Assembly (NCBI GenBank): GCA_963662465.1
Contig: OY759599.1
Location: 1,216,001 to 1,280,000 of the forward strand
Direction of reading: 5' to 3'
DNA from: Desulfatiglandales bacterium
GTDB taxonomy: Bacteria > Desulfobacterota > DSM-4660 > Desulfatiglandales > Desulfatiglandaceae
DNA length: 64,000 nucleotides
The notes beneath the pieces are model-generated. The model worked only from the letters and a program-made list of their open reading frames with translations, searched no databases and had not been told where the DNA came from. The position numbers were made by a program, and so were the translations under genes. Shown in pieces: positions 40,443-63,777 of this stretch (the first letter of the stretch is position 1; each line of letters opens with the position of its first letter).

Positions 40443-41480
40443 ATGGCGGAAATACAAGGGGACAATCCCATCAGGATCTGGCTGGGGACAACCGAAGCCC
40501 AAACCGTGATTCGAAGGGCGTCCCGGCAGATCGCCGGTGAAGTTCGATTGAGAAGCCTTTCCCTCAATTTTTTGCAAAAGGATTTTTTGGGCCAAAGCCA
40601 TGAATCAGAGCTGTTAAACGACATTATCTCTGAACTGTCCCTTTTCATTTTGGAGAATGCAACCAGATGGCGAGACCAGTTTCAGCCGCAACATCCCCAT
40701 GCCCATATATACCTGAAAAAGGCCTTCATATCCCATTGGATTTCCAGGACCCGCAGGGCCGACCGCGATCCCAAACGGCATGTATACCGGCGGGTTCAGA
40801 TGCTCTTGAAACAGGCGCCGGGATTTTTTACCCATTCCGATAACAATCAAAAAACCGCTTTCAGCCGGATGGCGGAAAACGGGAAAATCTCCCGGTTGCT
40901 GGAAGACGATCTGGACGAAATCCCTTTCCCCCCGGTGGAATGCGACTACGAATCCATCAATCGGAAAGCCGTTCTGCTGGATCTTGCGGGCTATTTCTGG
41001 GATCGGGTCTCCGCCATGTGGGAAGGTCGGCCCGTGTGGGTGGATCTCAGGGATTTCACCAATTGGCTCGAACGCTTTGTTTTTCTGGGCGGTGCCATCC
41101 AGGAAGGCGGCGGGGTTTACGAGGATGATCCGCTGGACCGGCTTCCCCATCCCGGACCCGGTCCGGACCGGATCCCGGTTGATCCCGAACGGATCAGGTG
41201 CATGGCCCACCGGTTTGCCCGGGGGTTGGATGCAAAGGAAAAAACCGTATTTTTTATGATTCACGAAACGGATGCCCCGTTGCGGGAGGTTGCCCTGGCA
41301 GTGGGGTACAAGGGAAGCTCCGGTCCCAAATATGCGCTGGATCGGATCCATGAGCGGCTCGGGACGCTTCTCAGGGAAGAACCGGCCTTTGCGCCGGGGG
41401 AAACGGACCGGGAGGAGGCCTTTTCCCTCTTTTTCCACACCCTGCTGTCGATTTTGAAAAACCGGGACAAAAGGCCGTAA
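40443..41480 (+). CDS. Divergent sigma-70/ECF-like sigma factor
   Basis: Sigma2-like DIISELSLFILEN...YLKKAFISHWISRTRR; sigma4-like LDAKEKTVFFMIHETDAPLREVALAVGY...ALDRIHERL; long insert between them. Confidence 0.65.
   Translation: MAEIQGDNPIRIWLGTTEAQTVIRRASRQIAGEVRLRSLSLNFLQKDFLGQSHESELLNDIISELSLFILENATRWRDQFQPQHPHAHIYLKKAFISHWISRTRRADRDPKRHVYRRVQMLLKQAPGFFTHSDNNQKTAFSRMAENGKISRLLEDDLDEIPFPPVECDYESINRKAVLLDLAGYFWDRVSAMWEGRPVWVDLRDFTNWLERFVFLGGAIQEGGGVYEDDPLDRLPHPGPGPDRIPVDPERIRCMAHRFARGLDAKEKTVFFMIHETDAPLREVALAVGYKGSSGPKYALDRIHERLGTLLREEPAFAPGETDREEAFSLFFHTLLSILKNRDKRP
41452..41480 (+). promoter_or_regulatory. ECF-type promoter motif, site A
   Basis: TTTTGAA-N15-GCCGTAA in the last codons of the sigma gene, 49 nt before ATG 41530. 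Confidence 0.7.
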
Positions 41481-41529
41481 ACCAAGGAATAAGGGAAGGC
41501 CCGAACAGCACTTTCCACATGGACAGGAA

Positions 41530-42594
41530 ATGAACCCCATGAACGACCGAAAACGCGCCCTCATGATGGCCCGGCAATACCGGACCTGCCCACCCGATGA
41601 TGTGAAGGATGCTCCGTGGCAGGCCCTGGCGAGAGAACTGGAAAAAGTTTTTCGGGAGGGACAAAAAACTCCCGAACCGCCGGACCCGAAATCCGGCCAA
41701 TTGCGATGCCTCAATCCCCTTTCCCGGCCCTGGCGCGGAGACCGATTTTACAACCCCCCCATGGTGCTGATTCTGGAGTGCCTCTCCCCCCATGGCGCCG
41801 CGCACCGGGTCCGGTCGGCCCTCATCTTTCCCGACATACGCCTGGCCGCCCCCGGCGATCTCATTGTGTCGCTCGAAAGGTTCGGGGAGGGGGATATTTT
41901 CGTGGAATCGTGGAATATCATTACCCTGCGTCGGGATCATCTGGGACCGCTTGTAGATACCGTGAGCTCGGAAATCACAGCGGCGGTGGAGGCCCTGGCC
42001 GGGGACCCGGAAGCCTACCCCGCCTGGGCCATGATGCCTAGACCTTTTTTCCCAGGGGGTTCCGAATTTCCGGACCCCCGGCGGGAATTTCGGAAGCTGG
42101 AACGGGAAGTGGCGGGGGTATTTTCGGGCCTGCGGCCCGTCTATGGTTCGGCCCGGGAAACGGGGAAAGCCCTCGAAACAGCGGTTCCCGGCGTTTACTG
42201 GAAGAAAAAACCCGCAGGGGTGGACGAGGCCATGGCCCTGGCCCGGTTTCCCGACCATCAGCTTCCCTTGGCGGCGGCCGACGTTCATGGGGCAACCATG
42301 GCGGCCAATCTGGCGGTGCTGCGGGATGGGGAGGTTCAAACCTTTGTTCCCGTGCCCTTGACGATTTTCGGTAAAACCGGAAATCTCATGATTGCCGGGC
42401 GCATTACGGGCCTTCCAGCGGGGGTGGACCATTCCCGCTTGATATGCCGCCTGGAAGTGCCCGATGGCGCGTTCCTTTCCCCCGACCAATGTCGCTGGGA
42501 CCCGAAGGACGGGAATTTCGTCGTATCCTTTGAGGGGGTGGAAGGTATCGAGGGAACCCTCCGGGCCGCGGTGGTGGTGAAGAGTGAAGAGTGA
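41530..42594 (+). CDS. Putative anti-sigma factor, CalpT-like (MazF-like fold plus beta-rich C domain)
   Basis: GQL...NPPMVLIL...LAAPGDL...VESWNIITL...DPRREFRKLE pattern; linker QLPLAAAD; lies between the sigma and protease genes. Confidence 0.55.
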   Translation: MNPMNDRKRALMMARQYRTCPPDDVKDAPWQALARELEKVFREGQKTPEPPDPKSGQLRCLNPLSRPWRGDRFYNPPMVLILECLSPHGAAHRVRSALIFPDIRLAAPGDLIVSLERFGEGDIFVESWNIITLRRDHLGPLVDTVSSEITAAVEALAGDPEAYPAWAMMPRPFFPGGSEFPDPRREFRKLEREVAGVFSGLRPVYGSARETGKALETAVPGVYWKKKPAGVDEAMALARFPDHQLPLAAADVHGATMAANLAVLRDGEVQTFVPVPLTIFGKTGNLMIAGRITGLPAGVDHSRLICRLEVPDGAFLSPDQCRWDPKDGNFVVSFEGVEGIEGTLRAAVVVKSEE

Positions 42595-42614
42595 AGAGTT
42601 AAGAATTAAGAGTG
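42577..42614. repeat. Heptamer tandem repeat (GTGAAGA) x5, degenerate
   Basis: GTGAAGA x3, GTTAAGA, ATTAAGA across the stop codon at 42594. Confidence 0.75.
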
Positions 42615-42677
42615 GGGGGGGTGAGGTTTGAAATGAAGGGACCTGACGTTCTTAAAAATCGGGGTTGAAGGCTGTTG

Positions 42678-44810
42678 ATGCCCATGGATATCTCTTTCCT
42701 CCTTTTTCTATCGGAAGTTTCATGGTCCCGGGACCTGGTGTCGTCCCTGCTTTGCGATCCCCGGACCACTTTATGGGGATCCCTTTCCCTGTCACGGTTC
42801 AAGACCCAATTTAACAACATCGGCAATAATTTTAAACACACGCCCTGTCTCATGACCTTGCTGGAACGGCATCTTCTGGCCCGCTGCCTTCTTCGGGGCG
42901 CGGATGTTCCGGAATGGTTCTTCCGGTTCGTGGAAGAGACCATCGACCTTGAAGAACATCTGCCCGGCATGGATTGGAATGCCTGTTGCGCCGGGCGATG
43001 GGTGGCCGCGCCCATGCTCCTGGTGGGCGAACGGGCCCATCTGCGATGGCTTTTGGTGGGGCGGGTGAAGCAACCTCGTCCTCGTCCGTTTCCCCCCTGG
43101 GTCGAAGAACTGATGGATTCGAAGGCCCGGCATGCCGTTATGGATGCCATGACAGCCGTAAGCCCGGCTGGATGGGATACTGTGCCGCCGCCGGGCGCGT
43201 TCACCTGCTTTCCCCTGGTGGCGGCCCATGAAAACTGCCGCATTGCCGGCGTTTCCCTGGGGCTTTCCACGGCCCTGGCCTGCATTTTTCTGGATAACGG
43301 GGGTGAGGGAATCATGGATGTCGCCGCTGCCGGAACGGTGCAAAAGGACGGCGCCGTGGGACCGGTGGGTCGGCTCCCGGAAAAGGTTGCCCATGCGGCG
43401 AAAAGCGGGTTTCGGCTCATGGTGGTCCCCGCCGGGAATCGCCTTCCTGCCGATTGCCCGGAAATGGATGTCCTGCCCGCGGCTACCCTGGCAGAAGCAT
43501 GGTTGTTGGCGTCCCTCCATGGGCCGGGCCGGGGAAACCGGTTGCGCCTGTTTGAAGCCATGTTGAATGATCCCCGAACCTTCGTGGATAACTGCGCCGC
43601 CGTTCCGACCCAATGGCTTTGGTGGGCGAAAAAGAACGGACGAACCGGGTCCGTCATGGCGCAGGTTTGCTCAGCGGAATCACTATTCGGCCGATTTGTG
43701 CATCACATGGGGGATTGCCTCCGGAACGGTCGCCTGTCCCATGGGGAAACCCTGGCGCAACTGCCGGACTCCCCTCCGCGGGACCATGGGGATTGTTCTC
43801 CCGCATCCCGGTTCAAATGGATTCTCGTAAACCTGGCCCTTGCCAATCATCGGGGACTGGTGTTGGAGAGTGAGCAGTGGGCCGGGAGGGCAGGTAAGAT
43901 GGTAAAGGGGGCTTCCGTAACCGACCTTACGGCCTTTGCCGCCTTTTACAATTACGGGTTTGTGGGGTTGCGTCATAATCAATACCGGTTTACGCCGGAA
44001 TTGCCCGGTCCCCTGGCAGACCTCCTGTCGTCTCTTGAGACCATGCACAGGGCCCAGTGCCGCATTCTTCCCGGTTCTCAAAACGGCGCCCTTGGGGCCC
44101 TTTACGGCACCATTGCTCAGAACTTCGGATTTTGCGGTCCTTCCTTTCTAACGCAAACCCGGAAGTATGTCCTCCTTTCCACGGAAGCCTTCGGGGATGA
44201 TCCCTCCGTCCATGAAGATCGCCGGCGACAACAGCATTGCCTGGCCTATGCCCTGATGGATGCGGGCCGGTTCCGGGAGGCGGAAGAGACCCTCCTTCCC
44301 TATCTGGATGTGATGTCCCGGGACGAACTGTGCGACCGCCTGCCCGGGTTCCAGAAGTGGGAACATGCGCTTCTGGCGCGGTTTCTGGTCGATTTCAGAC
44401 CGGTGGAAATGTGCCGTCGGTATGCCCAATGGGTTGAAAGGGAGGGTGCTTCCATGGTCGGAAAAACACATCCCTGGCAATTGTGGCGTCATAATATGGG
44501 CCGTGTCATGCTGTTTCTGGGGCGAAGGGAGGAGGCCGTCTTTTTTTTCAAAGAGAGCCTCGAATTGTGTCTTTCCGGCCGTTTCGGCGCCACGGTGCGG
44601 GTGATGGCGTTTCTGCCCCTGTCGGGTCTTCGCAAATCGGACGCGCTGAAGGGGTTGAACCTGGACGCCCTGGAAAAGACCCTTCGGAGTGCGGCTGGTT
44701 CCTTGAACCCGGTTCATTTTCAGGATCTGCTGAAGGAAAAGGACTTTCTGAAAGCATTGGATCGGGTGTGGGAAAAGCCGGCCGATTTCTTCCCTTTTAC
44801 CTATCGTTAG
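42678..44810 (+). CDS. Lon-type (S16) protease domain protein with a helical/TPR-like C-terminus, no AAA+ domain
   Basis: IAGVSLGLSTALA...AGTVQKDGAVGPVGRLPEKVAHAAKSG..VVPAGN; Ser and Lys are 43 residues apart, as in the Lon dyad. TPR-like helices (LAYALMDAGRFREAEETL; NMGRVMLFLGRREEAVFFFKESLEL). Confidence 0.8.
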   Translation: MPMDISFLLFLSEVSWSRDLVSSLLCDPRTTLWGSLSLSRFKTQFNNIGNNFKHTPCLMTLLERHLLARCLLRGADVPEWFFRFVEETIDLEEHLPGMDWNACCAGRWVAAPMLLVGERAHLRWLLVGRVKQPRPRPFPPWVEELMDSKARHAVMDAMTAVSPAGWDTVPPPGAFTCFPLVAAHENCRIAGVSLGLSTALACIFLDNGGEGIMDVAAAGTVQKDGAVGPVGRLPEKVAHAAKSGFRLMVVPAGNRLPADCPEMDVLPAATLAEAWLLASLHGPGRGNRLRLFEAMLNDPRTFVDNCAAVPTQWLWWAKKNGRTGSVMAQVCSAESLFGRFVHHMGDCLRNGRLSHGETLAQLPDSPPRDHGDCSPASRFKWILVNLALANHRGLVLESEQWAGRAGKMVKGASVTDLTAFAAFYNYGFVGLRHNQYRFTPELPGPLADLLSSLETMHRAQCRILPGSQNGALGALYGTIAQNFGFCGPSFLTQTRKYVLLSTEAFGDDPSVHEDRRRQQHCLAYALMDAGRFREAEETLLPYLDVMSRDELCDRLPGFQKWEHALLARFLVDFRPVEMCRRYAQWVEREGASMVGKTHPWQLWRHNMGRVMLFLGRREEAVFFFKESLELCLSGRFGATVRVMAFLPLSGLRKSDALKGLNLDALEKTLRSAAGSLNPVHFQDLLKEKDFLKALDRVWEKPADFFPFTYR

Positions 44811-44896: not shown

Positions 44897-45298
44897 TACG
44901 ATATTAAGGCGAAGGCTGTTTGGCGGGCCAAGATCGTCTGAAACCCATGGTTCAGGCCATAGATAGCCGGAGAGGGGGGGGCGTGCATGCAAATTGAGTG
45001 CGGCAATGAGTGAAGCGGTATTTGATGGACACTTATGCGGCCGGCGGGCTTCAACGCTAATCAAAACTGAACCAAGTTTGCTAATGGAAATTGAACCATT
45101 GGCTGTCACCGCCGGTGAGTACGGCCCTCAGGTATAGCGGACGATGAGGGATCCATAAGTGGCGGCAAAGGAGTCGTTGATGTAGATTTACTTTTCAATA
45201 AATTTTTATAAAATCTATTTTCTTTGGATTTGGTTTTCTTCTTCCAAGACAGAGGCTTGGTTAAGTGGAAATGCGATTTACTTTGTAGAATGGATGGT

Positions 45299-45334
45299 GA
45301 AGGCCCGAAGTAGCCGCTTCGGGCCTTCTTTTTT
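45299..45334 (+). terminator. Intrinsic terminator inside the IS left end
   Basis: Perfect 12-bp stem GAAGGCCCGAAG / CTTCGGGCCTTC followed by T6. Confidence 0.8.
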
Positions 45335-45410
45335 GACCACCGGATAGAGCCGGAAGCCACACACACGCCAATTTTATATAAGTGTGTTTCCGGCCAATTG
45401 CAAGGCCGGA

Positions 45411-45827
45411 ATGATGGGAGATGTCCTTTTAAGAGTGGTTCAATGCCGATGTTGTGGTTGCTTTTTTCACGTCTGTCGGTCGTGTTGGCGTGGCCAGGCC
45501 TATTGTGGGGAACGATGTCGCAGGATACGCCAAAGACAGCTGCACCGGAAAGCTCAGGGGAAATACCGCAATTCGAAAAAAGGGAAAGAGCGCCGTCGTT
45601 TGTACGAAAAAACAAAAAAATCCAAAAAAAATGGACTGAACCCTGGTGATGATAGTTCAACACCTCAAAAAGACTGTGATATTGAACCCAAAAAGCGGTC
45701 GGGGAACCGACCCAGCTGTCTTTTTTGCGGGTCGATCGGGGTTGTTGTGGACCATTTTCCTCGCCGTGCTTATGCAGGGAGGGTTTTTTCAGATGTAACA
45801 GGCTTTGAGAAAACCCCATATCCATGA
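45411..45827 (+). CDS. Cys-rich basic hypothetical protein (IS passenger)
   Basis: CRCC..FHVCRSCWRGQAYCGERC and CLFCG; start uncertain. Confidence 0.65.
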   Translation: MMGDVLLRVVQCRCCGCFFHVCRSCWRGQAYCGERCRRIRQRQLHRKAQGKYRNSKKGKERRRLYEKTKKSKKNGLNPGDDSSTPQKDCDIEPKKRSGNRPSCLFCGSIGVVVDHFPRRAYAGRVFSDVTGFEKTPYP

Positions 45828-45839
45828 CAGGAGAAAAAA

Positions 45840-46259
45840 ATGATCAAAAAAAGAGTCCTTTTTCCCGAAAGAGTGCGTGTCATCAATGGAAGCTTCGGCT
45901 TTCTGGAGCATCGTTTTTTGAGAAACGGCTTTTGGGAGAGCCTGAATCATCATGAGCTGCTGCTCTACATTTTTCTGGTGTTGGTATCTGACAAAAACGG
46001 TCTCTCTTATTATGGTTACGACAGAATCTGCCGGATTTTAAAGGTGCATTTGGATCAATATATCGATGCCCGCGATGGCTTGTTGGACAAGGATCTGATT
46101 GGGTTTGATGGCCGTCTGTTTCAGGTTCTTTCGCTTCCCAGACGTCCTGTGATTGTGAAACAGGTAAAGGAGATCCGGCAAGGAAATTGGGTCAGTCTTG
46201 GAGAAACCATAGAGGAAATCTTTCGGGAGACTGGGTATGGAATCCATCCGAACCGTTGA
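45840..46259 (+). CDS. Hypothetical wHTH-like protein (IS passenger)
   Basis: AGGAG RBS; LLYIFLVLVSDKNGLSYYGYDRICRIL...ARDGLLDKDLI. Confidence 0.7.
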   Translation: MIKKRVLFPERVRVINGSFGFLEHRFLRNGFWESLNHHELLLYIFLVLVSDKNGLSYYGYDRICRILKVHLDQYIDARDGLLDKDLIGFDGRLFQVLSLPRRPVIVKQVKEIRQGNWVSLGETIEEIFRETGYGIHPNR

Positions 46260-47121
46260 TATTCATTTGCTGGAGTTGCGTTACGCTCATTGCCGGATAA
46301 TGAATCACCAGGCTTTAAAGCGATTGAGGGATTCCATCGAAACTTACGGGCAGATCGTTCCGGCCCTGGCTATTGAAGAAAAAGACAAACTGATTCTGAT
46401 TGATGGCTACCTGCGTGTTCGAGCGCTTTGTGCTTGTGGAAAGGACCGGATATGTGTCCAATTCTCAAAAGAAAACGAACAAAATGCCATGTTTTCGCTT
46501 TTAACCAAGGCCAATGAACGGCAATGGGAAGTCATTGAGCAGTCTGTTTTACTTCAGGAATTACATCGGCGTTTTGGGTGCAGCCTCTCCCATATTGCAA
46601 CCCGAATAGGGCGCGACAAGAGTTTTGTAAAACGGCGGCTGGACCTGGTTGAAGCCCTGCCGGAAAATATTTTGAGAACCGTGATTGCAGGCTCACTTTC
46701 AACCTGGGCTGCCGGCCGTGTCATGGCGCCGTTGGCGCGCGCCAACGGTGAAGACGCACAAAAACTGTTGGCCCACCTGGAAAAAGAACCTCTATCCACA
46801 AGGGAACTGGCCCGTTTCTACGCACATTACCAGAAAAGCAACCGGTCTGTTCGAGACCACATGCTGGAAAATCCATCCCTTTTCATAAAAGTTCTCGAAC
46901 AAAGAACCCAGTCTAAACAAGCCAAAGAAGTTCATGATGGACCGGAAGGCAAATGGTTCAAGGATATTGAAATGGCATATGCGGTTCTCAAACGTCTGGT
47001 GAAAACCGTTTCGCATGTCCATTACCCAAAAAGCGATCAGTTGAAGAAACAAACGCTCAAAACCTGGGTGAAAAAGATAGAAAAACAAGCACTGGAACTC
47101 AAGAAAGCGACCCAATTATGA
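46237..47121 (+). CDS. ParB N-terminal domain protein (IS passenger)
   Basis: LRDSIETYGQIVP, LIDGYLRVRAL, HTH SLSHIATRIGRDKSFVKRRL. Confidence 0.85.
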   Translation: MESIRTVDIHLLELRYAHCRIMNHQALKRLRDSIETYGQIVPALAIEEKDKLILIDGYLRVRALCACGKDRICVQFSKENEQNAMFSLLTKANERQWEVIEQSVLLQELHRRFGCSLSHIATRIGRDKSFVKRRLDLVEALPENILRTVIAGSLSTWAAGRVMAPLARANGEDAQKLLAHLEKEPLSTRELARFYAHYQKSNRSVRDHMLENPSLFIKVLEQRTQSKQAKEVHDGPEGKWFKDIEMAYAVLKRLVKTVSHVHYPKSDQLKKQTLKTWVKKIEKQALELKKATQL

Positions 47122-48500
47122 TCCGACAATCCAAAAAAGATGCCATTGTGGAATTGAAAAAAACCGGCATGAGTTTGCGCGACATCGCCAAAACCCTGAA
47201 GGCCGGTCGCAATACCGTCACGAAGGTTTTAGATGATCATGACGAAGAGGCGGTACCCCAAAGGAACTCCCGGTATGAAGAACATGTCCCGTTGATCCGC
47301 GAGCTTTTCAAGGAATGTAAAGGAAATGCCGTGCGAGTAGCCGAGGAACTGGAAAGCCGCCAACAGATCAAAATCCCTTATCAGAGTCTGACCTGGATTA
47401 TGAGAAAGTACGAGATCCGGGAACGTAAAAAAAGACGGGCGGGCCAATACCATTTTAAACCCGGTCAGGAGATGCAGCATGATACGTCACCCCATCTGGT
47501 TGTCATTAATGGGAAAAAAATGTCGACCCAGTGCGCGTCCCTGACCCTGGCCTTTTGCCGAAGGATTTTTATTCAGTATTACCCCTGTTTTACCCGGTTT
47601 GAGTGCAAGGTTTTCCTAAAAAAAGCATTCGAGTTTATGGACGGGGTGTGTTCCCGGTGCATGGTTGACAACACCAATGTTATTGTGGCCGGCGGCACCG
47701 GGCCTGATGCATTGATTGCGCCTGAAATGAAATACTTCGGCGATATGTATGGAACCCGGTTTGAGGCCCATGCTGTAGGAGACGCCAATCGAAGTGCCCG
47801 TGTGGAAAGGCCTTTTCATTTTGTGGAAAACAATTTTCTTCCCGGTAGAACATTTGTTAGCTGGCAGGATTTGAACCGGCAGGCAATCGACTGGTGCCGG
47901 AATACAAGCGATAAAAAGTTTAAACGGGCTTTAGGGATGACGCCGGATGAGGCCTATGTCATTGAAAAGCCATATCTCATTGATTTACCGGCATACCAGC
48001 CGCCAGTCTATGTGGCAGAACACAGGGTAGCCGATGTTCAGGGATATGTGCACTTGGACACCAACCGCTATTCAGTCCCTGAAGCGCTGATTGGGAACTC
48101 CCTGGAAGTACAGAAACATTGGCTCAAGGTCATCGTTTACGACAAAAACACAAAAGTGGCGGAACATGACCGCATACTGGATAAACGCAACACCCGAACA
48201 ACCCTGCCCGGTCACCATGTTCCCATTCGAAGAAAAAAAGATCCCCGAATCCCTTCAAAAGAAGAACAGCTGTTGACGGGAGAGGATGCCATCCTGGATG
48301 AGTATGTGGCTGAACTGAAGAAAAGAAGTCACGGTCGCGGTGTGGTCAAGTTACGTCGGTTGCTTCATCTGAAACGCACTTATCCCGGGGAACCTTTTTT
48401 GAAAGCCATAACACAGGCGCTTAAATATGGACTTTTTGATTTGTCGCGTCTGGAAAACATTATTCTCGATTATATCGCGGGAGACTTTTTTGATCTATGA
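47118..48500 (+). CDS. istA: IS21 transposase
   Basis: HTH; PGQEMQHD, CMVDN, ARVERPFHFVENNF; C-terminal LDTNRYSVP. Confidence 0.92.
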   Translation: MIRQSKKDAIVELKKTGMSLRDIAKTLKAGRNTVTKVLDDHDEEAVPQRNSRYEEHVPLIRELFKECKGNAVRVAEELESRQQIKIPYQSLTWIMRKYEIRERKKRRAGQYHFKPGQEMQHDTSPHLVVINGKKMSTQCASLTLAFCRRIFIQYYPCFTRFECKVFLKKAFEFMDGVCSRCMVDNTNVIVAGGTGPDALIAPEMKYFGDMYGTRFEAHAVGDANRSARVERPFHFVENNFLPGRTFVSWQDLNRQAIDWCRNTSDKKFKRALGMTPDEAYVIEKPYLIDLPAYQPPVYVAEHRVADVQGYVHLDTNRYSVPEALIGNSLEVQKHWLKVIVYDKNTKVAEHDRILDKRNTRTTLPGHHVPIRRKKDPRIPSKEEQLLTGEDAILDEYVAELKKRSHGRGVVKLRRLLHLKRTYPGEPFLKAITQALKYGLFDLSRLENIILDYIAGDFFDL

Positions 48501-49216
48501 AAAAGAAAATTGAACAGTTACTCATTGATTTGAAGTTTAAAGGCATGCTGAAGGCTCTCGAAGAACAGTTGGCTTCGGCTGAAAAGAACGGTTTTTCCAT
48601 TCACGAGGTCATCTACAATCTCCTGGCTGAGGAATTACGTTTCCGGCAGGAGCGCAGCATGATCTATCGGGTCCAGATTGCAAAGCTTCCATGGGAATGG
48701 ACCCTCAACTCCTTTCCGTTTGATCTTCAGCCGGGAATACAGAAGAGCCGGATCATGACGTTGTCCGGCCTTGACTTTATCAGCCGAAGAGAAAACATCG
48801 TGTTCCATGGAAAAACCGGCGTCGGCAAAACGGGATTGGCCGTGGGGATCCTTCGTCAAGCCATTATTGCCGGGTACCGGGGGCGTTTTTATAATGTTCA
48901 GGATTTGCTGGATCAGCTCTATGCGTCTTTGGCAGATCGGTCCACCCCGAAACTCCTCAATGCCCTTTGCAGATATGACCTGCTTCTGCTCGATGAACTG
49001 GGATACCTGACCCTCAAAAAAGAGCAGATGAACGCCTTTTTTAAACTCATGAAAGATCGCTATGAAGCCGGTCGGTCCACAATTATTACGACCAATCTTC
49101 AACCTGAACAATGGTATTCGCTGCTTGAACCAAAGGACATGGTCGATGCCTTGCTGGATCGTCTCAACCATCGCTGCATCAACATTCATATTGATGGTCC
49201 TTCCCTCAGAAAATGA
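48497..49216 (+). CDS. istB: IS21 helper ATPase
   Basis: HGKTGVGKT, LLLLDELGY, STIITTN, DALLDRL. Confidence 0.93.
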   Translation: MKKKIEQLLIDLKFKGMLKALEEQLASAEKNGFSIHEVIYNLLAEELRFRQERSMIYRVQIAKLPWEWTLNSFPFDLQPGIQKSRIMTLSGLDFISRRENIVFHGKTGVGKTGLAVGILRQAIIAGYRGRFYNVQDLLDQLYASLADRSTPKLLNALCRYDLLLLDELGYLTLKKEQMNAFFKLMKDRYEAGRSTIITTNLQPEQWYSLLEPKDMVDALLDRLNHRCINIHIDGPSLRK

Positions 49217-49314
49217 GATGTTCGCCAAAGGGCCGGTTTTGAGGTCTGAATATCACCGGTCTGTTTGAATCTCGTTACACGAATATCAGAAATTACCTTG
49301 TCTTGGAGCTTGAA

Positions 49315-49512
49315 ATGAGAGGTGGAAAACGGGTAGGCGCCGGCCGAAGAAAGAAACCGGAACATTTGAGACGTGAACTGCTCACCATTCGTCTCCCCAA
49401 ATGGATGATTCTACAGCTGAAAAAAAACGGGGAAATTGGATATTTGATTGAGGATCAATTGGCGAAGGGAGGCCTCCTGAATTTACCGGACGACTATGAC
49501 ATAGACAAATAG
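49315..49512 (+). CDS. Small basic RHH-like protein (IS passenger)
   Basis: MRGGKRVGAGRRKK...LTIRLPKW; GGAG RBS. Confidence 0.6.
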   Translation: MRGGKRVGAGRRKKPEHLRRELLTIRLPKWMILQLKKNGEIGYLIEDQLAKGGLLNLPDDYDIDK

Positions 49513-49838
49513 TTCCTCAATAAGCATTGCCCTTAACCGAAAAATCTAATCCCCTCTTCTCTGCCATCACCATATTGATGGTATCCTCATCACTGATTCT
49601 TCAACCAGAACGCTACGTGTCTCACCAGCATTTTTAAAATACCATCTGATATACTCTTTCATGCAACCTCTAACAAATTTACAAGAAAACCCTTCTAAAA
49701 GGAAAAGACCAGTGCGCAATATCTGGTTCCGTTTGGAGTAGCAAAACTGGTTCCATTTTGGTTAGCGCCCAAGCCGGCGGGAGGACTGCCGGAAAAAACA
49801 GTTGTATTTCATGTCGTGCATATTTAGGAGAAAATAGA

Positions 49839-50654
49839 ATGAAAAGGGTGTTGATGGGTTTGTTTATCATGTTGGCGATGGCGCCGTGTCTGTGCTTTGG
49901 CGGTGTGGATATCGATATTTCCGAAAGTTCGTTTCAGGCGACCGGTCCCCGGACCCTGATGGGAACAAACGTATATGTTTCCGAGCTTGATGATGGGCTG
50001 TATTCATGTACGTTTCAGTGGGATGCGGAAGCATTGTTGTGGCGGTTGACGGCCTATACGAGAACCGGGCGGAAAGGCTCCAATGATGCCCTGTACTACG
50101 CCAGACAACTGGCGGGTAATTGGACCTTCGCGTACACCATTATCAGCGTCTTTACGGATCGGGTTTGCCTGGATACCATCCACACGTCTGATCCCAACAG
50201 CGAAGGGGGTTATTTTGTATCGGGAAGGAATCAATATGGCGGTGTGGTGGCCGGTTGCCACTGGCCGGAGCAGGGCTATTTCATGGTGCTTGACCCGGGT
50301 TCCATTATCGACCGGGTCTATGTGTTCACCATTGAAGGCAATCGCGTGAAAACGGGTTTTTATCAGCACTATTCCCATTCATCGAAAAAATGGTCGAACA
50401 CCTATGCCTTGAGTGGAACAAAAGTGCCGTTGAATCCAATTGTCACCACTGGTGGCGTTCAGAAAAACGCGACGGAGTTTGACCAGCCCCATGCCAATTT
50501 TGCCATCGGACTGGCGGCTCAACGGGCGGCACTGGAGGAAGCGGAAGGTTCGTCGATGCAAGGGTCTGAAAATGAAGGCGAAAGCCCGTTACTTCCCTTT
50601 AATGGGCACATGGCGAGCGCCTATGACCTTTTGAAGGCTTTCCTTTCCCATTAG
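49839..50654 (+). CDS. Exported hypothetical protein
   Basis: AGGAG RBS; signal peptide MKRVLMGLFIMLAMAPCLCFG; aromatic, beta-rich body. Confidence 0.75.
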   Translation: MKRVLMGLFIMLAMAPCLCFGGVDIDISESSFQATGPRTLMGTNVYVSELDDGLYSCTFQWDAEALLWRLTAYTRTGRKGSNDALYYARQLAGNWTFAYTIISVFTDRVCLDTIHTSDPNSEGGYFVSGRNQYGGVVAGCHWPEQGYFMVLDPGSIIDRVYVFTIEGNRVKTGFYQHYSHSSKKWSNTYALSGTKVPLNPIVTTGGVQKNATEFDQPHANFAIGLAAQRAALEEAEGSSMQGSENEGESPLLPFNGHMASAYDLLKAFLSH

Positions 50655-54200: not shown

Positions 54201-54960
54201 CTTCGAGGGGATTGAGACTTGGCCGGCGGTCAACCCTAATTCAACAGCTTTTTTCGTCAGAACCATTGCCCCGCTTCGAGGGGATTGAGACACACAAGAT
54301 TATCGCTTCGATTGTTCCTGGGGTTTCCAGTCAGAACCATTGCCCCGCTTCGAGGGGATTGAGACTTTACAATACCTGCAAAATCTTTTTTTCATTTATC
54401 TTGTCAGAACCATTGCCCCGCTTCGAGGGGATTGAGACTGTACCAATTCCATAATTTACGCCTTTGTGGTTTTCCATGAGTCAGAACCATTGCCCCGCTT
54501 CGAGGGGATTGAGACCTGGCAAATCCTTTTGAGCCCAATAACTTCCGGCACAAGTCAGAACCATTGCCCCGCTTCGAGGGGATTGAGACATGAAATCATC
54601 ATAAAGCTGCGGTCCTTTTACCGCGACGTCAGAACCATTGCCCCGCTTCGAGGGGATTGAGACTGATGCTGTCCTGCCGTTAGCCCCATTTCAAGGGCTT
54701 GTCAGAACCATTGCCCCGCTTCGAGGGGATTGAGACTTCCTACGTGCCCAACCATGGGCCGCTGTTACGATATGTCAGAACCATTGCCCCGCTTCGAGGG
54801 GATTGAGACATCACTCTCTTTTCATCGTTCATTACTTTCCCCTTGTATTAGTCAGAACCATTGCCCCGCTTCGAGGGGATTGAGACTATATCATCTTCAC
54901 ATGCGCAACTGAACTAATTGGCAAGTCAGAACCATCGCCCCGCTTCGAGGGGATTATCGT
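51239..54960 (+). CRISPR. CRISPR array, 51 repeats and 50 spacers, probably type III
   Basis: 36-nt repeat GTCAGAACCATTGCCCCGCTTCGAGGGGATTGAGAC counted by hand; spacers 36-42 nt; last repeat (54925) degenerate. Confidence 0.98.
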
Positions 54961-56143: not shown

Positions 56144-56172
56144 TTTTGAACATTCCTCCCACATGGCCGTAA
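56144..56172 (+). promoter_or_regulatory. ECF-type promoter motif, site C
   Basis: TTTTGAA-N15-GCCGTAA, 83 nt before the TPR gene start. Confidence 0.75.
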
Positions 56173-56255: not shown

Positions 56256-57611
56256 ATGCCGGCTCAATTACAGGAAGCATTGAAACAGGCGGTGGGAAAC
56301 CAGACGTTTCCCAAAGGGCAAGAGAACGTCGATAATGACGCGTTCTTTTCCATGGACGATCTCGTGCCAGTCAAAAAGGATGCCGCAAAGCGGAGTCTTA
56401 AACGGGTTCTTTTAGAGATGGAAGAATTGATCCGTGAAAAGAAATGGGAAGACGCGGCGGCGCTTTTTTACCCAATCGAGGAAAAACAGCCGGAACTTCT
56501 GGCTCACGGCATGGATATTCCCGTGCGGGCTAAGGCGGCCTTTGCCCTGGGACAGTTGAATCGGTACGACGCGGCCATTGCGGAGCTGATGTTGTGCGTC
56601 AAAGGGGAACCTGAAAATTTTTACCATCACAGTTCCCTGGCTTATACGGCCTATAGTTCCCTTTTCGCCGCCCAGAAACGGGAAATTTTTCTGAGCGGCA
56701 AGATCCGGGCCGAGCGAATCGAATTGGCCCATCGGCATTTCAGACGGTCCCAGGAATTGCGGCCCACGGGGGTTACCAACTTCTACCGGGAAGGGATGCT
56801 CTACCAGAAGATCGAGGGCAAATCGGAAAAGGCCCGGCCGTTTTTTCAAAATGCCGTTTCCTGCTGGGAGCATCTGTCCGCAGAAGAGCAAAAGGCTAGA
56901 GCGCAGGAACGGAAGAATTATGTGAAATCCCTATACAGGCTTTCCGGCGTTCTCCTGGAAAAAGGGGATGGGGCCGGCGCTCTCAGAACCATGAACCGCT
57001 GCCTGTCGGAAGATGAAAAGAGCGGGTATCTGTCCCTGGTGTTCAAGTATTTCGCCTATGGCAAGATCAACCATTATTTGAACCGATTCGACAAGGCCAG
57101 GGATGCCCTTCTGTTTGCCCTTCAGAGTGGAACGGGCGGGAATCATGATTTTGTGAATGAATTGCTTTCCCGCACCTATCTCGCTTTGGGCAATCCACAG
57201 CGGGCACTGGAAGTGATTCTCAAAATCCCTGAAAATCGCCGCAGGCCCTATTGCCGGTGGACGGAAGCGGATGTGTTGTGCGCACTGAAACGATATGACC
57301 AGGCCAGGGCGGCCCTGCTCAAAAGCGGGGAACGGGACACCCGATCCCGGCATAAAAGCTTGATGCGGCTGGTAAAGATCGAGTATGCGGAAAATCATTT
57401 TGACAAGGCCCGGTCTTATGCCGCCGAAGCGGATCGGTTTTTCAAGGAGAAATGGGGCAACCATTTTCTGGAGGGACTCTTTTGGCAGGCTGTATGCGCC
57501 TATCGGCAGGGAAATAATGACGAGGCACTGGCCCTGGCCGGGGAGTTAAAAGCGCTGAAATCCGATTATCCAAAGCTGGATGTACTGTTGAAGAGGCTTG
57601 AGGGGTGTTGA
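56256..57611 (+). CDS. Tetratricopeptide repeat protein
   Basis: Repeated TPR helices (AFALGQLNRYDAAIAEL; LSRTYLALGNPQRALEVI); ATG 56256 behind GGAGGAGG. Confidence 0.85.
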   Translation: MPAQLQEALKQAVGNQTFPKGQENVDNDAFFSMDDLVPVKKDAAKRSLKRVLLEMEELIREKKWEDAAALFYPIEEKQPELLAHGMDIPVRAKAAFALGQLNRYDAAIAELMLCVKGEPENFYHHSSLAYTAYSSLFAAQKREIFLSGKIRAERIELAHRHFRRSQELRPTGVTNFYREGMLYQKIEGKSEKARPFFQNAVSCWEHLSAEEQKARAQERKNYVKSLYRLSGVLLEKGDGAGALRTMNRCLSEDEKSGYLSLVFKYFAYGKINHYLNRFDKARDALLFALQSGTGGNHDFVNELLSRTYLALGNPQRALEVILKIPENRRRPYCRWTEADVLCALKRYDQARAALLKSGERDTRSRHKSLMRLVKIEYAENHFDKARSYAAEADRFFKEKWGNHFLEGLFWQAVCAYRQGNNDEALALAGELKALKSDYPKLDVLLKRLEGC

Positions 57612-57617
57612 TGGGGA

Positions 57618-58192: not shown

Positions 58193-58327
58193 AAACAATC
58201 CTCCTTTTTAGTAGTATGGTAGGTAGTATGATGGAGCACGAGATTGCTGAAGTCAAGGATATTACGCCTCGGATTTTCCTCAAAAAAATAGTCTGCATCC
58301 ATGAATCCGGGTTAATTCCAATAATTT

Positions 58328-58356
58328 TTTTGAAAATTTTTTATCCATGGCCGTAA
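58328..58356 (+). promoter_or_regulatory. ECF-type promoter motif, site D (cas1 promoter)
   Basis: TTTTGAA-N15-GCCGTAA, 42 nt before the cas1 ATG. Confidence 0.78.
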
Positions 58357-58398: not shown

Positions 58399-59445
58399 AT
58401 GGAAGCGGTATACGTACTCGAACCGGGCAGCTACATCCGACGGGAGGGCATGAGCCTCAAGGTGGTCAAGGACGGCAAGGTCCTGGAGCAGATCCCGGCG
58501 GATGGACTCAAACGGTTGATGTTGGTGGGGTATGTGTCCCTGACGGGCAGCGTGTTGGATTTTCTGATCCGCAACCGGGTGGAAACCGTTTTCATGACCC
58601 CCACCGGGCGGTTTCGCGCGAGACTCACCCTGGACGAACAGGGGCATGTGGAACGGCGCCGAACCCAGTATCTTCAATTGAGCCGCAAGGCATTTGCTCT
58701 GGAAACGGCACGCATGGTGGTTCGGGGGAAAATCAGAAATATGCTTCGATTCACCCTGTTGCGAGCCCGGCAGTACGGCGATGAGGCACTGAAAATTGCC
58801 GCTGTGCGCCTCAACAGCGCATCGGCCCACCTGGACGACATCAAGGAGATGGAGGGGTTGCGGGGGGTGGAGGGGGCCGCCACCCGGGCCTACTTCGGAG
58901 GGTTCAATCACCTGCTTCGAAACGAGACGTTTATCTTTAAAGGACGGAATCGAAGGCCGCCCCTGGACCCTGTCAATGCCCTCCTTTCCTTTGTTTACAC
59001 CCTGCTGACCAATGAAGTCCTCTCCGCCGTTCAGGCCGGCGGCCTGGACCCTTATCTCGGGGCCCTTCATGAACCGCTCCCGGGAAGGCCGTCCCTGGCC
59101 TGCGACCTGGTGGAGGAATACCGCACATTTTTGGGGGACCGGCTGGTGCTGGGCCTGATCAATCGGAAGGTCATCGGGAAGGACGATTTTGTTTACGGCA
59201 AAAAGCCGCCCAAGGTCTTTGTGGATGAAGAAGACCTGAAGCGAAAGCGGCCCGTTCTCATGAAGCCCGCCATCTGCCGGGCCTTTATTCAGGCCTATGA
59301 AGAGATGATGAAACGGGATGTTTACTATCCCCCCCTGGACAAAAAAATCACCTACCGGTGGTTGATCCTCCAGCAGGCCAGACGATTCGGCGGTTACCTG
59401 AAGGAACCGGAAAAGAAATACCTCCCCTTTACGTGGGATTCCTGA
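58399..59445 (+). CDS. cas1: CRISPR integrase Cas1
   Basis: LRGVEGAATRAYF, RNRRPPLDPVNALLSFVY, GLDPYLGALH, SLACDLVEEYR. Confidence 0.97.
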   Translation: MEAVYVLEPGSYIRREGMSLKVVKDGKVLEQIPADGLKRLMLVGYVSLTGSVLDFLIRNRVETVFMTPTGRFRARLTLDEQGHVERRRTQYLQLSRKAFALETARMVVRGKIRNMLRFTLLRARQYGDEALKIAAVRLNSASAHLDDIKEMEGLRGVEGAATRAYFGGFNHLLRNETFIFKGRNRRPPLDPVNALLSFVYTLLTNEVLSAVQAGGLDPYLGALHEPLPGRPSLACDLVEEYRTFLGDRLVLGLINRKVIGKDDFVYGKKPPKVFVDEEDLKRKRPVLMKPAICRAFIQAYEEMMKRDVYYPPLDKKITYRWLILQQARRFGGYLKEPEKKYLPFTWDS

Positions 59446-59447
59446 AC

Positions 59448-59726
59448 ATGTTCTGCCTGGTCTGTTTTGACATTGTGGACGACCCCGCAAGGGCCCGGGT
59501 GGTGAAGGTCCTCAAAAGCCACGGTCAGCGGGTGCAGAAATCCGTGTTCGAATGTTCGTCTTTGGGGGAGGAAAAATTCCTGAAAATGAAAAACCGCATC
59601 GAAGACCTCATCGACAACGCCGAGGACACGGTTCGCTATTATTTTCTGTGCAAGGGGTGCCTGGATCGAATGGAGTATTCCGGGGTGGGCAGTCCCCCGG
59701 ACCGGGAAACGTACCGGGTGGTGTAG
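59448..59726 (+). CDS. cas2: CRISPR-associated Cas2
   Basis: LVCFDIVDDPARARVVKVLKSHGQRVQKSVFEC. Confidence 0.95.
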   Translation: MFCLVCFDIVDDPARARVVKVLKSHGQRVQKSVFECSSLGEEKFLKMKNRIEDLIDNAEDTVRYYFLCKGCLDRMEYSGVGSPPDRETYRVV

Positions 59727-59763
59727 GGTTTTAAGTTTTAAGTTTTAAGTTTTAAGTTTTAAG
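59727..59763. repeat. Heptamer repeat (TTTTAAG) x5
   Basis: Starts right after the cas2 stop; inverted counterpart at 63897-63926. Confidence 0.85.
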
Positions 59764-59936
59764 AAAAAAAGATGACTACAGGCTAATATACGGTGAAGTT
59801 GCTGACGCGAAACACCGAGTCGCCTCGCTGATTCACTGACCGACAGACCAATATTTTTCAGCATATCTTCACGCAAAATCTCACCGGGGTGTACGGGTGG
59901 TCTTTTTAACGGGCGTTTTACTAGATATTCTTCCAT
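59745..59936 (-). pseudogene. Truncated HigA-family antitoxin
   Basis: RPPVHPGEILREDML..GLSVSESARRLGVSRQQLHRIL, then runs into the heptamer repeat. Confidence 0.8.
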
Positions 59937-60103
59937 GGATTTACTCTTGACCCACAGGTTCATTTGCTCTATGCTCGCCGCTGAAAAAGGCAATGTTTTA
60001 TCATCAAAAACAGCATGCCATGATGCATGGTTGGGGAAGTTATTGCGGACGCGTTCCTTACCGCCCGCGGCAGGATAGGCAGGATCGATCATCAGGAGAA
60101 AAC

Positions 60104-61174: not shown

Positions 61175-62211
61175 TTTCCCCCTCCCGCTATGTCCGCAAA
61201 GGCCGACCCGGTTTGTGCTATGGGCTGGGGACCCTGCTGCTGGTCCTTTTTCTGGTTTCACTTATGGTGGGCCGATTTAAAATATCCGTTTCGGAAATCG
61301 GCGCCATATTATCGAGCCTGCTGCCCGGCAACAGCCTTTCCCACGACCTTGTTTCCCAGAAGCTGGTCTTTTTGTGGGTACGCCTGCCAAGATGCATCAT
61401 GGCCGTCATTGTCGGCGCCGGCCTGTCAATTTCAGGCGCCGCGTACCAGGCACTGTTCCGAAATCCGCTGGTATCCCCGGATATTCTCGGTGTCGCGGCG
61501 GGATGTACATTCGGTGCGGCATTAGGAATCCTTCTGCCTGGAGACGGTTGTTACCAGGTCCAGGTCCTTTCCTTTGGGTTCGGTCTTCTGGCGGTTTCCA
61601 TGGCTGTCGGCATTGCACGGCTCATATCCGTTAAACCGGTGATTGTAATGGTGCTGGCGGGCATGGTGGTACTCTCTTTTTTTAATGCCCTGTTGATGAT
61701 CCTTAAATACTTTTCCGATCCCTATGATGAACTGCCGAGCATTGTTTTCTGGATCATGGGGAGCCTCACCCGGGCGACCTGGCATGATCTGGCGGTCGCC
61801 GCACCGGTGACCGGCTGCGGGTTGCTGTTGTTTATGCTGCTGCGCTTTCGGCTTAACATCCTTTCTTTGGGGGACGTCCAGGCCCAATCCCTGGGGATGA
61901 ACCCCTCTATTTTCAGAATAGTCCTGATTACCACAAGCTCCTTCATGGTGGCCATGCTCGTGGCCGCCTGCGGCCAGATCTGCTGGATCGGCCTGATCAT
62001 ACCGCATATGGCCCGGACCCTGGTGGGCCCCGAACACGAGAACATGCTTCCGGTAACCGCCCTTTTGGGCGCCATCTTCATGCTGGCCGCCGATGGCGTC
62101 GCCAGATCCGTCACATCCGCTGAAATCCCGGTGGGCATCATTACGGCCCTTGCCGGCGCGCCGATTTTTGCCTTTCTCTTATACCGAAACAGGGGGAGCG
62201 GATGGCTGTGA
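61171..62211 (+). CDS. FecCD-family permease
   Basis: VRLPR, YQALFRNPLVSPDILGV, IGLIIPHMAR, EIPVGIITALAGAP. Confidence 0.92.
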   Translation: MISPSRYVRKGRPGLCYGLGTLLLVLFLVSLMVGRFKISVSEIGAILSSLLPGNSLSHDLVSQKLVFLWVRLPRCIMAVIVGAGLSISGAAYQALFRNPLVSPDILGVAAGCTFGAALGILLPGDGCYQVQVLSFGFGLLAVSMAVGIARLISVKPVIVMVLAGMVVLSFFNALLMILKYFSDPYDELPSIVFWIMGSLTRATWHDLAVAAPVTGCGLLLFMLLRFRLNILSLGDVQAQSLGMNPSIFRIVLITTSSFMVAMLVAACGQICWIGLIIPHMARTLVGPEHENMLPVTALLGAIFMLAADGVARSVTSAEIPVGIITALAGAPIFAFLLYRNRGSGWL

Positions 62212-62990
62212 AACTGGAGTGCAAATTGCTCACGTTCCGATACGGAAAAACGGACATTCTCCACGACATCTCCTTTTCCGTTGAACCCGGTGTTTTTTGT
62301 GCTGTTCTCGGCCGCAACGGTTCGGGTAAAACCACCCTGCTCCATTGCCTGAATGGCATTCATAAACCCTGTGAAGGGAATATTTTGATCAACGGCAAAG
62401 ATATCAACCTCATGACCCGCAACGAAATCGCTCGACACGTCAGCCTCGTCCCTCAGGAACACCTTGAGATTTTTCCGTTCCGGGTGATAGACGTTGTGGT
62501 CATGGGGAGAGCGCCTTTTATCGGGATGACCCGAACGCCCACACCGATGGATTATGATCTGGCCCTTGAGGCTCTTGAAACGCTCAATGCCCGGAGACTG
62601 GCCGACTGCAATTTCAACCGGATTTCAGGCGGAGAAAGACAAATTGTCCTGCTGGCCTGCGCCCTTGCCCAAACCAGTGAAATCATGCTCCTGGATGAAC
62701 CCACCAACCACCTTGATTTTAACAACCAGTACCTTCTTTTATCCAGAATCAAGCAGTTCTGCCGGACCCGAAAAACCAGTGTGATCGCCTCCATGCATGA
62801 TCCCAACATGGCGATTTTGTTTGCTGATACCATCGTCATGGTCAAAAATGGTAAACTGGTCGCCTGCGGCCCTGCCGAAGACATCATGACCAAACAAAAC
62901 ATTGACCGTTTATACGATACGGATACGGCGCCTTTGGCAATTTCCGAAACCAGACATTTCTTTCTGCCCGGCGGAATCGTTAATGCATAA
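62202..62990 (+). CDS. ABC ATP-binding protein (FecE-like)
   Basis: LGRNGSGKTT, ISGGERQ, LLDEPTNHLD. Confidence 0.92.
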   Translation: MAVKLECKLLTFRYGKTDILHDISFSVEPGVFCAVLGRNGSGKTTLLHCLNGIHKPCEGNILINGKDINLMTRNEIARHVSLVPQEHLEIFPFRVIDVVVMGRAPFIGMTRTPTPMDYDLALEALETLNARRLADCNFNRISGGERQIVLLACALAQTSEIMLLDEPTNHLDFNNQYLLLSRIKQFCRTRKTSVIASMHDPNMAILFADTIVMVKNGKLVACGPAEDIMTKQNIDRLYDTDTAPLAISETRHFFLPGGIVNA

Positions 62991-63657
62991 ATCACCGGAT
63001 AAAATATCGACCGTACCCTGCAATTCAGCGGAATTACCCCCGGAATTGTTTAATTTGAATGCGGGCATCCGTTCAAACATGCCCGACAACAGCCTTCTGT
63101 TCACGGCAGCCCCGGATACCCGGCGCATCATTCTCACCGGAGCGGTTCAATCCGGCAAATCTACGCTTGCGGCTCTGCTGGTCAGACAGTTGAAGCGGAA
63201 AAACATTCATGTGGCCGGCATTCTGGCCAAGGGGCTATGGGAAAACAATCAGCGCTCAGGCTTTGATCTGATCGACCTGAAAACCGGTCTGTCGATGCCC
63301 CTGGCCAGGCGGCTCGCACCGGCGGAAGGACTCGGCAAACCGGAAATGCCCTTTAGATTTCTGAAAACGGGTGTGGCTGCTGGTCGCAGGGCCCTGAACG
63401 TGGTCCAGTGCGGCCGGGCCGACCTCATTATGGTAGATGAAATCGGCAAACTGGAGGCCCGGGGACTGGGCTGGGCCCCGGACCTGGCGCCATTGCTGGC
63501 CTTTTCCGAAGCCATTCACCTGTGGATTGTCAGGGAGCATCTGGTGGAAAAGATCTGCCGCATCTGGCATGTCACCCGAACGCAGGTCATCCATGTCACG
63601 GCCCCGGATGCTCTGGAGCAGTTGACAGCCGCATGTGCAACAGGAAAGATCGAATAA
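62983..63657 (+). CDS. NTPase_1/DUF2478-like P-loop protein
   Basis: ILTGAVQSGKST, RSGFDLIDL, LIMVDEIGKLE; start uncertain. Confidence 0.8.
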   Translation: MHKSPDKISTVPCNSAELPPELFNLNAGIRSNMPDNSLLFTAAPDTRRIILTGAVQSGKSTLAALLVRQLKRKNIHVAGILAKGLWENNQRSGFDLIDLKTGLSMPLARRLAPAEGLGKPEMPFRFLKTGVAAGRRALNVVQCGRADLIMVDEIGKLEARGLGWAPDLAPLLAFSEAIHLWIVREHLVEKICRIWHVTRTQVIHVTAPDALEQLTAACATGKIE

Positions 63658-63748
63658 TTTTTTGCCACACATTCCCCCCCCTTGTCGTAAACCATTTTTC
63701 GCGCTATAACGCTGTTTTCTGAAGCATCTTTTCTGCTTTTTCATTTTT

Positions 63749-63777
63749 TTTTGAAAATCTCCTCATCATCGCCGTAA
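63749..63777 (+). promoter_or_regulatory. ECF-type promoter motif, site E
   Basis: TTTTGAA-N15-GCCGTAA, 172 nt before ATG 63950. Confidence 0.75.

Follow-up and report, generated by a model that had tools for sequence, protein, structure and literature searches.

A promoter-like motif repeated across a type III-A CRISPR locus of a Desulfatiglandales bacterium is probably read by a neighboring ECF-like sigma factor in a putative protease-gated switch

Organization of the locus

The stretch of DNA analyzed here (the window) comprises 64,000 nucleotides of contig OY759599.1 (positions 1,216,001 to 1,280,000; assembly GCA_963662465.1) from a Desulfatiglandales bacterium, and contains part of a CRISPR locus in which a bipartite motif, TTTTGAA-N15-GCCGTAA, recurs upstream of genes. 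We describe this motif together with a cluster of three genes, hereafter the trio, encoding a divergent sigma factor candidate of extracytoplasmic function (ECF) type (40443), an anti-sigma-like protein (41530) and a Lon protease with a TPR superhelix (42684), each protein being named by the start coordinate of its gene. A sequence-only reading of the window had proposed that the motif is the promoter read by 40443, and that it couples protease activation to spacer acquisition and other defense genes. The features of the locus are as follows, with coordinates counted from the first letter of the window.

40443..41480, + strand: divergent sigma-70-family (ECF-like) factor, 345 aa, from family matches of its homologs and model alignment
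41452..41480, + strand: site A, overlapping the 3' end of the sigma gene, 49 nt upstream of 41530
41530..42594, + strand: anti-sigma-like protein, 354 aa, from alignment, motif survey and a predicted complex with 40443
42684..44810, + strand: ATPase-less Lon protease with CalpL-like N-domain and C-terminal TPR superhelix
44868..44896, + strand: site B, 3' of the protease gene; target in this genome uncertain, as an insertion sequence (IS) follows
45049..49773, + strand: IS21-family element (istA, istB, helix-turn-helix and ParB-like genes), 152 nt downstream of site B
49839..50654, + strand: 271-aa open reading frame (ORF) with a signal-peptide-like start and no Pfam match, missing from the sister genome G134
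51239..54956, + strand: CRISPR array with about 50 copies of a 36-nt repeat; its leader is at the left and a degenerate last repeat at the right
56144..56172, + strand: site C, 83 nt upstream of the TPR gene
56256..57611, + strand: CRISPR-linked TPR protein (PADLOC PDLC01172, E 5e-178)
58328..58356, + strand: site D, 42 nt upstream of cas1
58399..59726, + strand: cas1 (58399-59445) and cas2
63749..63777, + strand: site E, 172 nt upstream of the CAPP gene
63950..64000, + strand: start of a gene for a CRISPR-associated primase-polymerase (CAPP) of type A1, which matches NF040561 above its cut-off and spans L001:950-2566 in full

Past the window end the locus continues with a sixth site (F), cas6, cas10, csm2-5, a CARF-adenosine deaminase gene, csx20 and csx1; the cas10/csm2-5 genes make it type III-A, and the HD and GGDD motifs of Cas10 are both intact. 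The IS at 45049-49773 measures 4,725 bases, has the ends CTT...AAG and is flanked by an 8-base target duplication; over 20 near-identical copies of it occur across the genome.

The motif is confined to the CRISPR locus

A pattern scan of the window resulted in five exact matches, at 41452, 44868, 56144, 58328 and 63749, all on the + strand and all where the sequence-only reading had placed them, while 100 shuffles of the window gave none. The same five are the only exact matches in the whole closed genome (G000, 8,161,625 bases), and the earlier scan by eye had seen no full match in the first 41 kb of the window or on the minus strand; 17 alternative spacer lengths (8 to 25) gave three genome matches in total. 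The distances to the start codon downstream are 49 nt for site A, 83 for C, 42 for D and 172 for E, and 209 nt from site B to the ATG at 49839 once the IS is removed by arithmetic from the coordinates, which agrees with the 42-209 nt previously given.

In addition to the exact pattern, a site matrix was built from 40 sites at 27 loci of other genomes, picked at two or fewer mismatches to the motif after removal of one of 41 candidates as a probable coding hit. The six top-scoring sites of the genome (28.7-34.6 bits) all fall at the CRISPR locus, followed by a next-best score of 22.9 bits, so that the motif is not one that is common genome-wide before unrelated genes. The sixth of these, site F (G000:C1:1281909, one mismatch), lies 1,909 bases beyond the window end and 49 nt upstream of cas6, at the head of the type III-A operon, and thereby adds a target to those seen in the window. 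The next-best genome sites (at most 22.9 bits, five places inspected) were not counted as members of the regulon; one stands about 160 nt ahead of a 263-aa ORF and overlaps other ORFs, and the rest lie within, next to or antisense to ORFs.

Across the family the consensus reads TTTGnAAA followed by GCCGTA/T, that is, GAAA-N16-CGT. Spacer sequences vary among the sites, and five of the six are intergenic. The layout is that of an ECF-type promoter, with an AA-type -35 element, a CGT-type -10 element, a fixed spacer of about 16 nt, a single strand and a position upstream of genes. Sites B-E share CATN ahead of the -10 part together with a long T-tract, as had been noticed from the window, but CATN is no feature of the family, as T occupies that column in only 1 of 40 sites of other loci. 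A scan for sigma-70 promoters and terminators ahead of CAPP and cas6 stayed at shuffle level. Three public sequence runs, examined as contigs (two represent one sample, possibly the source), confirm the sequence and the IS ends.

Sites precede operon heads in related loci

Placement was surveyed in 36 fetched regions by requiring a site of at least 8 bits within about 320 nt upstream of a gene, a criterion reached by 41 of 5286 ORFs in the source genome as background. Sites precede the anti-sigma-like gene in 24/32 cases, the adaptation TPR gene in 13/15 and cas6 in 14/15; one of the two TPR-gene misses is site C of the source genome itself, lost through the start estimate. Rarer targets are csx1 (2/9), cas10 (1/7) and the deaminase gene (1/8), and no site was found before the sigma gene (0/27), the Lon protease gene (0/29), cas2 (0/12), csm2-5 (0/23) or csx20 (0/12). 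In the 11 genomes that had contributed no training site (excluding G000 and G134), the same distribution was observed: anti-sigma 7/11, TPR 3/3, cas6 2/2, sigma 0/10 and Lon 0/10.

In relatives the TPR gene heads TPR-CAPP-cas1-cas2 operons, and the position equivalent to site B lies upstream of cas6 or of the CRISPR leader. G000 and its sister G134 have this usual TPR-led operon in split form, and solely in these two do cas1 (2/12) and CAPP (2/13) have sites of their own. The candidate regulon including cas1-cas2 that the sequence-only reading had outlined stands, with the qualifications that a separate cas1 site is the exception among relatives, where the operon head is the usual target, and that the scope is wider, extending to the TPR and CAPP genes, to the anti-sigma gene with that of the protease, and to the interference operon.

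In the source genome, the sigma gene and site A overlap. The stop codon of that gene lies ahead of the -10 part in G134, G080, G310, G535 and G557, with unchanged spacing; the site is read through in G245 and G491 and is wholly 3' of the stop in G367 and G467. Because the site persists when the stop moves, is read through or precedes it, site A is a constraint on the DNA that is independent of the sigma reading frame.

In G445, G310, G096, G369 and G557, further sites lie upstream of operon heads of the cmr1-like kind, of a gene with DUF1232, of a small, putatively ring-nuclease-like gene and of small genes that are lipoprotein-like or unknown. The genes behind these sites are candidate accessory defense genes.

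The site tracks the trio

Among 209 genomes of the order, 12 carry the sigma gene and 27 the exact motif, the latter with 38 matches compared to 7 for a reversed control. The exact motif occurs in 7 of the 12 sigma genomes versus 20 of the 197 without sigma, the remaining five sigma genomes having variant sites, and 14 of 21 inspected matches (of 22) in sigma-negative genomes overlap ORFs of at least 150 aa. Within the genus (11 genomes), three have both sigma and exact motif and eight have neither. A control restricted to cas6 (30 best loci; 52 genomes matched) found the site in 4/5 loci of trio genomes, counting G053 among these, and in 0/25 others; the only miss in a trio genome is a cas6 directly behind CAPP. 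The TPR gene is present in 10 of the 12 sigma genomes versus 6 of the 197 others, and the site lies upstream of it in 10/10 trio genomes. Among 33 trio regions tallied, cas genes or an array turned up in the retrieved flank of 21, while 10 were too short to tell and two are linked to curli genes.

Sigma homologs paired with a short anti-sigma and lacking Lon (L008:8210-9505, L011:3061-4803, L014:201-1391, L156 and L157) have no cas genes seen nearby, and the site precedes an AEP-TOTE primase in 4/5 genomes, either divergent or distant and once about 1.57 Mb from the sigma gene. AEP-TOTE is the Pfam family also matched by CAPP. With a looser pattern, the match count in these five genomes was not enriched (19 vs 11 in the control), so that placement alone is informative. 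Furthermore, G053 (L075:8681-12750) carries a very diverged trio, composed of a sigma-like protein, a protein with the zinc motif and a Lon-TPR protease, followed by the exact motif, cas6 and a type III-B-like operon.

The three proteins of the trio

Homologs of 40443 match the sigma-70 model TIGR02937 in 72 of 112 cases and Sigma70_r4 in 43 of 112. Residues 244-315 of the 40443 model align with sigma region 4 (Z 7.6-8.0, a weak score; root-mean-square deviation (rmsd) 2.1-2.9), and a full-length alignment to an ECF factor runs from the N-terminus to region 4 (6dv9_F, Z 7.3, rmsd 12.3, 158 aligned), accompanied by weak full-length alignments to SigL and SigH. An insertion of 120 residues separates the N-terminal helical part from region 4. 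Foldseek with the 40443 model gave no match at E 0.001 (best E 0.025), a PDB sequence search returned nothing for 40443 or 41530, and PADLOC and NCBIfam contain no above-cut-off model for any of the three proteins.

The 41530 protein carries an LPLAAA motif and a C-terminal domain that is restricted to Lon-linked homologs. An LPLAA-type motif is kept in these, whereas homologs without a Lon neighbor stop short of it, and most homologs contain an HxxxCxxC zinc motif. Co-folding of 40443 with 41530 scored 0.65, compared to 0.00 for the best of three controls, with runs agreeing in at least 83% of contacts and a partner pLDDT (predicted model confidence) of at least 74; the mark used was reached by 116 of 157 solved pairs and 2 of 215 mismatched pairs. 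The model supports binding between the two proteins. Atlas matches for 41530 and for the TPR region of the protease stayed below 0.9 and serve as leads only.

In 42684 the Ser-Lys dyad of Lon (S191, K234) is invariant among 18 sequences. CalpL (7qda_A) aligns with the model over residues 4-278, which comprise the N-domain and the Lon domain (209 residues aligned at Z 13.6 and rmsd 5.0). An all-helical TPR superhelix is modeled for residues 283-708, with a whole-protein mean pLDDT of 88. Among bacterial proteins, Rap comes closest to the latter region in fold (Z 19.5, rmsd 5.2, 313 aligned), followed by MalT at Z 18.1, and family and fold searches gave no CARF or SAVED match anywhere in 42684. 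The protein is a CalpL-like Lon protease in which TPR replaces SAVED.

Other features of the window

Inside the locus, no site accompanies the HEPN/MNT pair (55041-55864) or the MazF-like gene and its small partner (57618-58198). A 7-base unit, GTTTTAA, occurs in inverted runs after cas2 (59727-59770) and before CAPP (63890-63926), and the ABC transporter cassette between these runs (59993-63657) is missing from G134. To the left, a tRNA-Leu gene (37640-37727) lies just ahead of the region, and the DNA after it (37878-39767) contains segments duplicated at a distance of about 1.7 kb as well as two small CCDC90-like ORFs; this stretch is possibly an island boundary.

Comparison with known systems

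Protease-released sigma factors that act on cas genes are already known, namely CASP-sigma, CalpS and DdvS, and the system described here is probably another variant. The closest in layout is CalpL-CalpT-CalpS, a type III SAVED-Lon protease, anti-sigma and ECF-like sigma, in which CalpT, an anti-sigma with MazF-like and DUF2080 domains, is cut in LAAA (bioRxiv 2024.05.08.593097). According to the available parts of that source, the two share the three-gene order of sigma, anti-sigma and ATPase-less Lon at type III loci, the N-domain and Lon fold with its Ser-Lys dyad, and a putative alanine-rich LAAA-type linker in the partner. They differ in that 42684 has a TPR superhelix in place of the cA4-binding SAVED, that most homologs of 41530 carry the HxxxCxxC anti-sigma-type motif, that 41530 has no PDB sequence match to CalpT, and that 40443, at 345 aa, contains an insertion. 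Those parts do not state a CalpS promoter.

The type III-E system of CASP-sigma, Csx30 and Csx29 likewise involves a protease-released sigma with several sites at its own locus, one of them before cas1, and few elsewhere (PMC10028731, in the parts available). Its motif, TCACAT...CGAC (Table S2 of the same source), differs by eye from the one reported here, and its protease is a Cas7-11-activated CHAT cysteine protease (TPR-CHAT), whereas here a Lon-TPR protease accompanies III-A and III-B genes, with no Cas7-11 or CHAT. Additionally, sites here also precede the interference operon and the anti-sigma gene.

DdvS of Myxococcus xanthus reads four GTAA-n16-CGT promoters across a type III-B/CBASS island and is silent until its zinc anti-sigma is inactivated, a TPR-protease module having been proposed as sensor (PMC6061681 and PMC11506125, both available in part). 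The GAAA-N16-CGT geometry is that of the mapped DdvS promoters (PMC6061681), several family sites being literally GTAA-N16-CGT, and locus-wide control by an ECF sigma is common to both. DdvA, however, unites anti-sigma and periplasmic TPR-CHAT in one membrane protein, whereas 41530 and 42684 are separate and Lon replaces CHAT; and DdvS has a promoter at its own operon, whereas no site precedes the sigma gene here and adaptation genes belong to the candidate regulon.

The adaptation genes resemble the CAPP modules of PMC8211822, in which CAPP type A1 is accompanied by cas1-cas2 and by a TPR partner, which in Marinitoga forms a fusion with CAPP, with the difference that the module heads here carry a dedicated promoter-like site; the word "sigma" is absent from the available main text of that source. 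A literature search that covered few subscription papers found nothing on a Lon-TPR CRISPR protease, this trio or the motif, and the main-text parts of PMC11229360 and PMC10910872 that were available do not describe such a protease or motif.

Interpretation and alternatives

Taken together, the ECF geometry, the use of one strand, the placement at operon heads only, the frame-independent conservation and the tracking with the trio suggest that the sites are candidate ECF-type promoters probably read by 40443, so that this part of the sequence-only reading gains comparative support. We infer the coupling of the protease to the regulon by analogy with the systems above. The full reading, in which the motif is the promoter of 40443 within a protease-gated switch of the whole CRISPR locus, has in our estimation a probability of roughly 0.7.

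Several findings count against it. The 40443 protein itself matches no family model, Sigma70_r2 is matched by 0 of 112 homologs and the fold Z-scores of the model reach only about 8. For 41530, neither PDB nor family searches gave a match, and there is no profile match to CalpT, MazF or DUF2080; we take its middle part to be MazF-like, by eye, and an Ig-like label was arrived at in the same way. In the source genome 41530 is without 26 residues (near residue 24) that carry HxxxCxxC, a gap shared with the database protein P0188 (97% identical) while close homologs at 75-80% identity keep those residues, and the anti-sigma may be leaky or differently controlled. Since the zinc motif is missing and site B is cut off by the IS, the circuit of this genome may be altered. 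With respect to sampling, training sites had been selected for their resemblance to the motif, many surveyed regions also gave training sites and related genomes are not independent. G053 was classed as trio-bearing only after its very diverged trio turned up, and the cas6 control becomes 3/4 vs 1/26 if it is counted as trio-less. The presence of the motif in genomes lacking the sigma, which had been named beforehand as adverse to the idea, was found in part: of six genomes in which the TPR gene but no trio was detected, the site lies within 450 nt upstream of that gene in two (G155, G203) and further upstream in two (G042, G091), and deeper searches in G155, G091 and G042 did not find the trio. 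These four are drafts of 70-660 contigs in which the site is less than 900 bases from a contig end, and loss, missing assembly or a second reader may each account for them. In G082 (L079:6021-7457), which has no full-length sigma match, an exact site stands before an ORF of 112 aa that is zinc-ribbon-like and divergent from a WYL-domain gene; G080 (L080) has a site and an ORF like these, and no cas gene was seen near either. Conversely, no site was found at the related trios of G478 (L133:8617-17736) and G382 (L135:1979-10356), which have a different protease C-terminus and are divergent from csgE, F, G and curlin.

The alternative that survives best accepts the promoter but regards the protease as an ordinary type III effector, activated by Cas10-made cyclic oligoadenylate through a new sensor fold, with the sigma amplifying a response already running. 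The cas genes or arrays beside 21 of 33 trio regions are in its favor, as are the kept GGDD of Cas10, the adjoining csx1, csx20 and CARF-deaminase genes and the occupation of the SAVED place by TPR in a CalpL-like scaffold. We nevertheless consider it unlikely, though a serious competitor: 42684 has no CARF or SAVED match, the best folds for its TPR region are the peptide/ligand receptors Rap and MalT, an interference operon headed by the site (14/15) would require basal expression, and the sigma family also serves a primase with neither Lon nor nearby cas genes.

A second possibility, that another host ECF sigma reads the promoter also or instead and that the trio is one more target, is improbable. 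AA-N16-CGT cores are common to many ECF promoters (PMC6061681, as far as available) and many ECF factors autoregulate (PMC10028731, likewise), which the sigma gene with its 0/27 sites would not do; sites in up to four of six TPR-bearing drafts without a detected trio, and in G082, point the same way. Against this, the 8.16-Mb closed genome holds no further strong site, 0/25 cas6 loci of trio-less genomes have a site, 0/8 trio-less congeners have the motif, and primase sites lie in trans in genomes with Lon-less homologs.

We think it quite doubtful, and more so than the second reader, that 40443 is no true sigma but a sigma-4-containing activator or repressor on a bipartite operator. Region 2, undetected by Pfam in 112 homologs, the 120-residue insertion and a Foldseek E no better than 0.025 would fit such a protein, but most homologs (72/112) match TIGR02937, the alignment to full-length ECF sigmas (6dv9_F) extends from the N-terminus as far as region 4, and the motif is non-palindromic with a fixed 16-nt spacing. 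Chance, protein-coding constraint or local duplication is very improbable even though the motif was defined post hoc and site A reads Leu-Lys-x5-Pro-stop in the sigma gene, as spacers differ, five of six sites are intergenic and the -10 spacing is kept whether the stop precedes it, is read through or lies before the whole site.

Proposed mechanism

Under the promoter reading, TTTGnAAA ... GCCGTA would constitute the -35/-10 promoter of 40443, which 41530 would hold at rest, as the co-fold model predicts. An infection signal, at which we can only guess, would bind the TPR domain of 42684; by analogy with CalpL/T/S, the protease may then cut 41530 in its LPLAAA linker, and the alanine-ending fragment may be degraded, releasing the sigma. 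The freed sigma with RNA polymerase would transcribe the adaptation genes (TPR, cas1-cas2 and CAPP) as well as the cas6-type III interference operon, effectors included. It would also drive the anti-sigma/protease pair but not its own gene, so that the switch would be re-armed and damped.

With respect to the trigger, a ligand that derives from phage or infection and is sensed upstream of interference is slightly favored, at somewhat less than even odds, since no nucleotide sensor is known in the protease, the targets include the interference operon and the sigma family is at work beyond CRISPR loci too. A feed-forward loop through cyclic oligoadenylate comes close, as a less probable possibility; contact with a Csm/Cmr or TPR-CAPP complex is rather improbable, and some other trigger slightly more so.

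A broader proposal, which we put forward tentatively, is that the trio is an upstream master switch whose TPR domain would sense infection without cyclic oligoadenylate and turn on adaptation, CRISPR RNA processing and interference together while re-arming itself, and that it would derive from a CRISPR-independent sigma/anti-sigma pair controlling an AEP primase. Such an ancestry, if true, would explain the inducible control of CAPP-based adaptation. For most type III systems it is an open question what turns spacer acquisition on during infection and limits it at other times, and only a few of the promoters targeted by protease-released CRISPR sigma factors have been mapped. The motif offers a specific candidate promoter and a six-site regulon for the unstudied Lon-TPR branch, with which a simple reporter could test the sigma and anti-sigma and then screen for the activating signal, and a new protease-gated sigma/promoter pair could serve as an orthogonal transcription switch.

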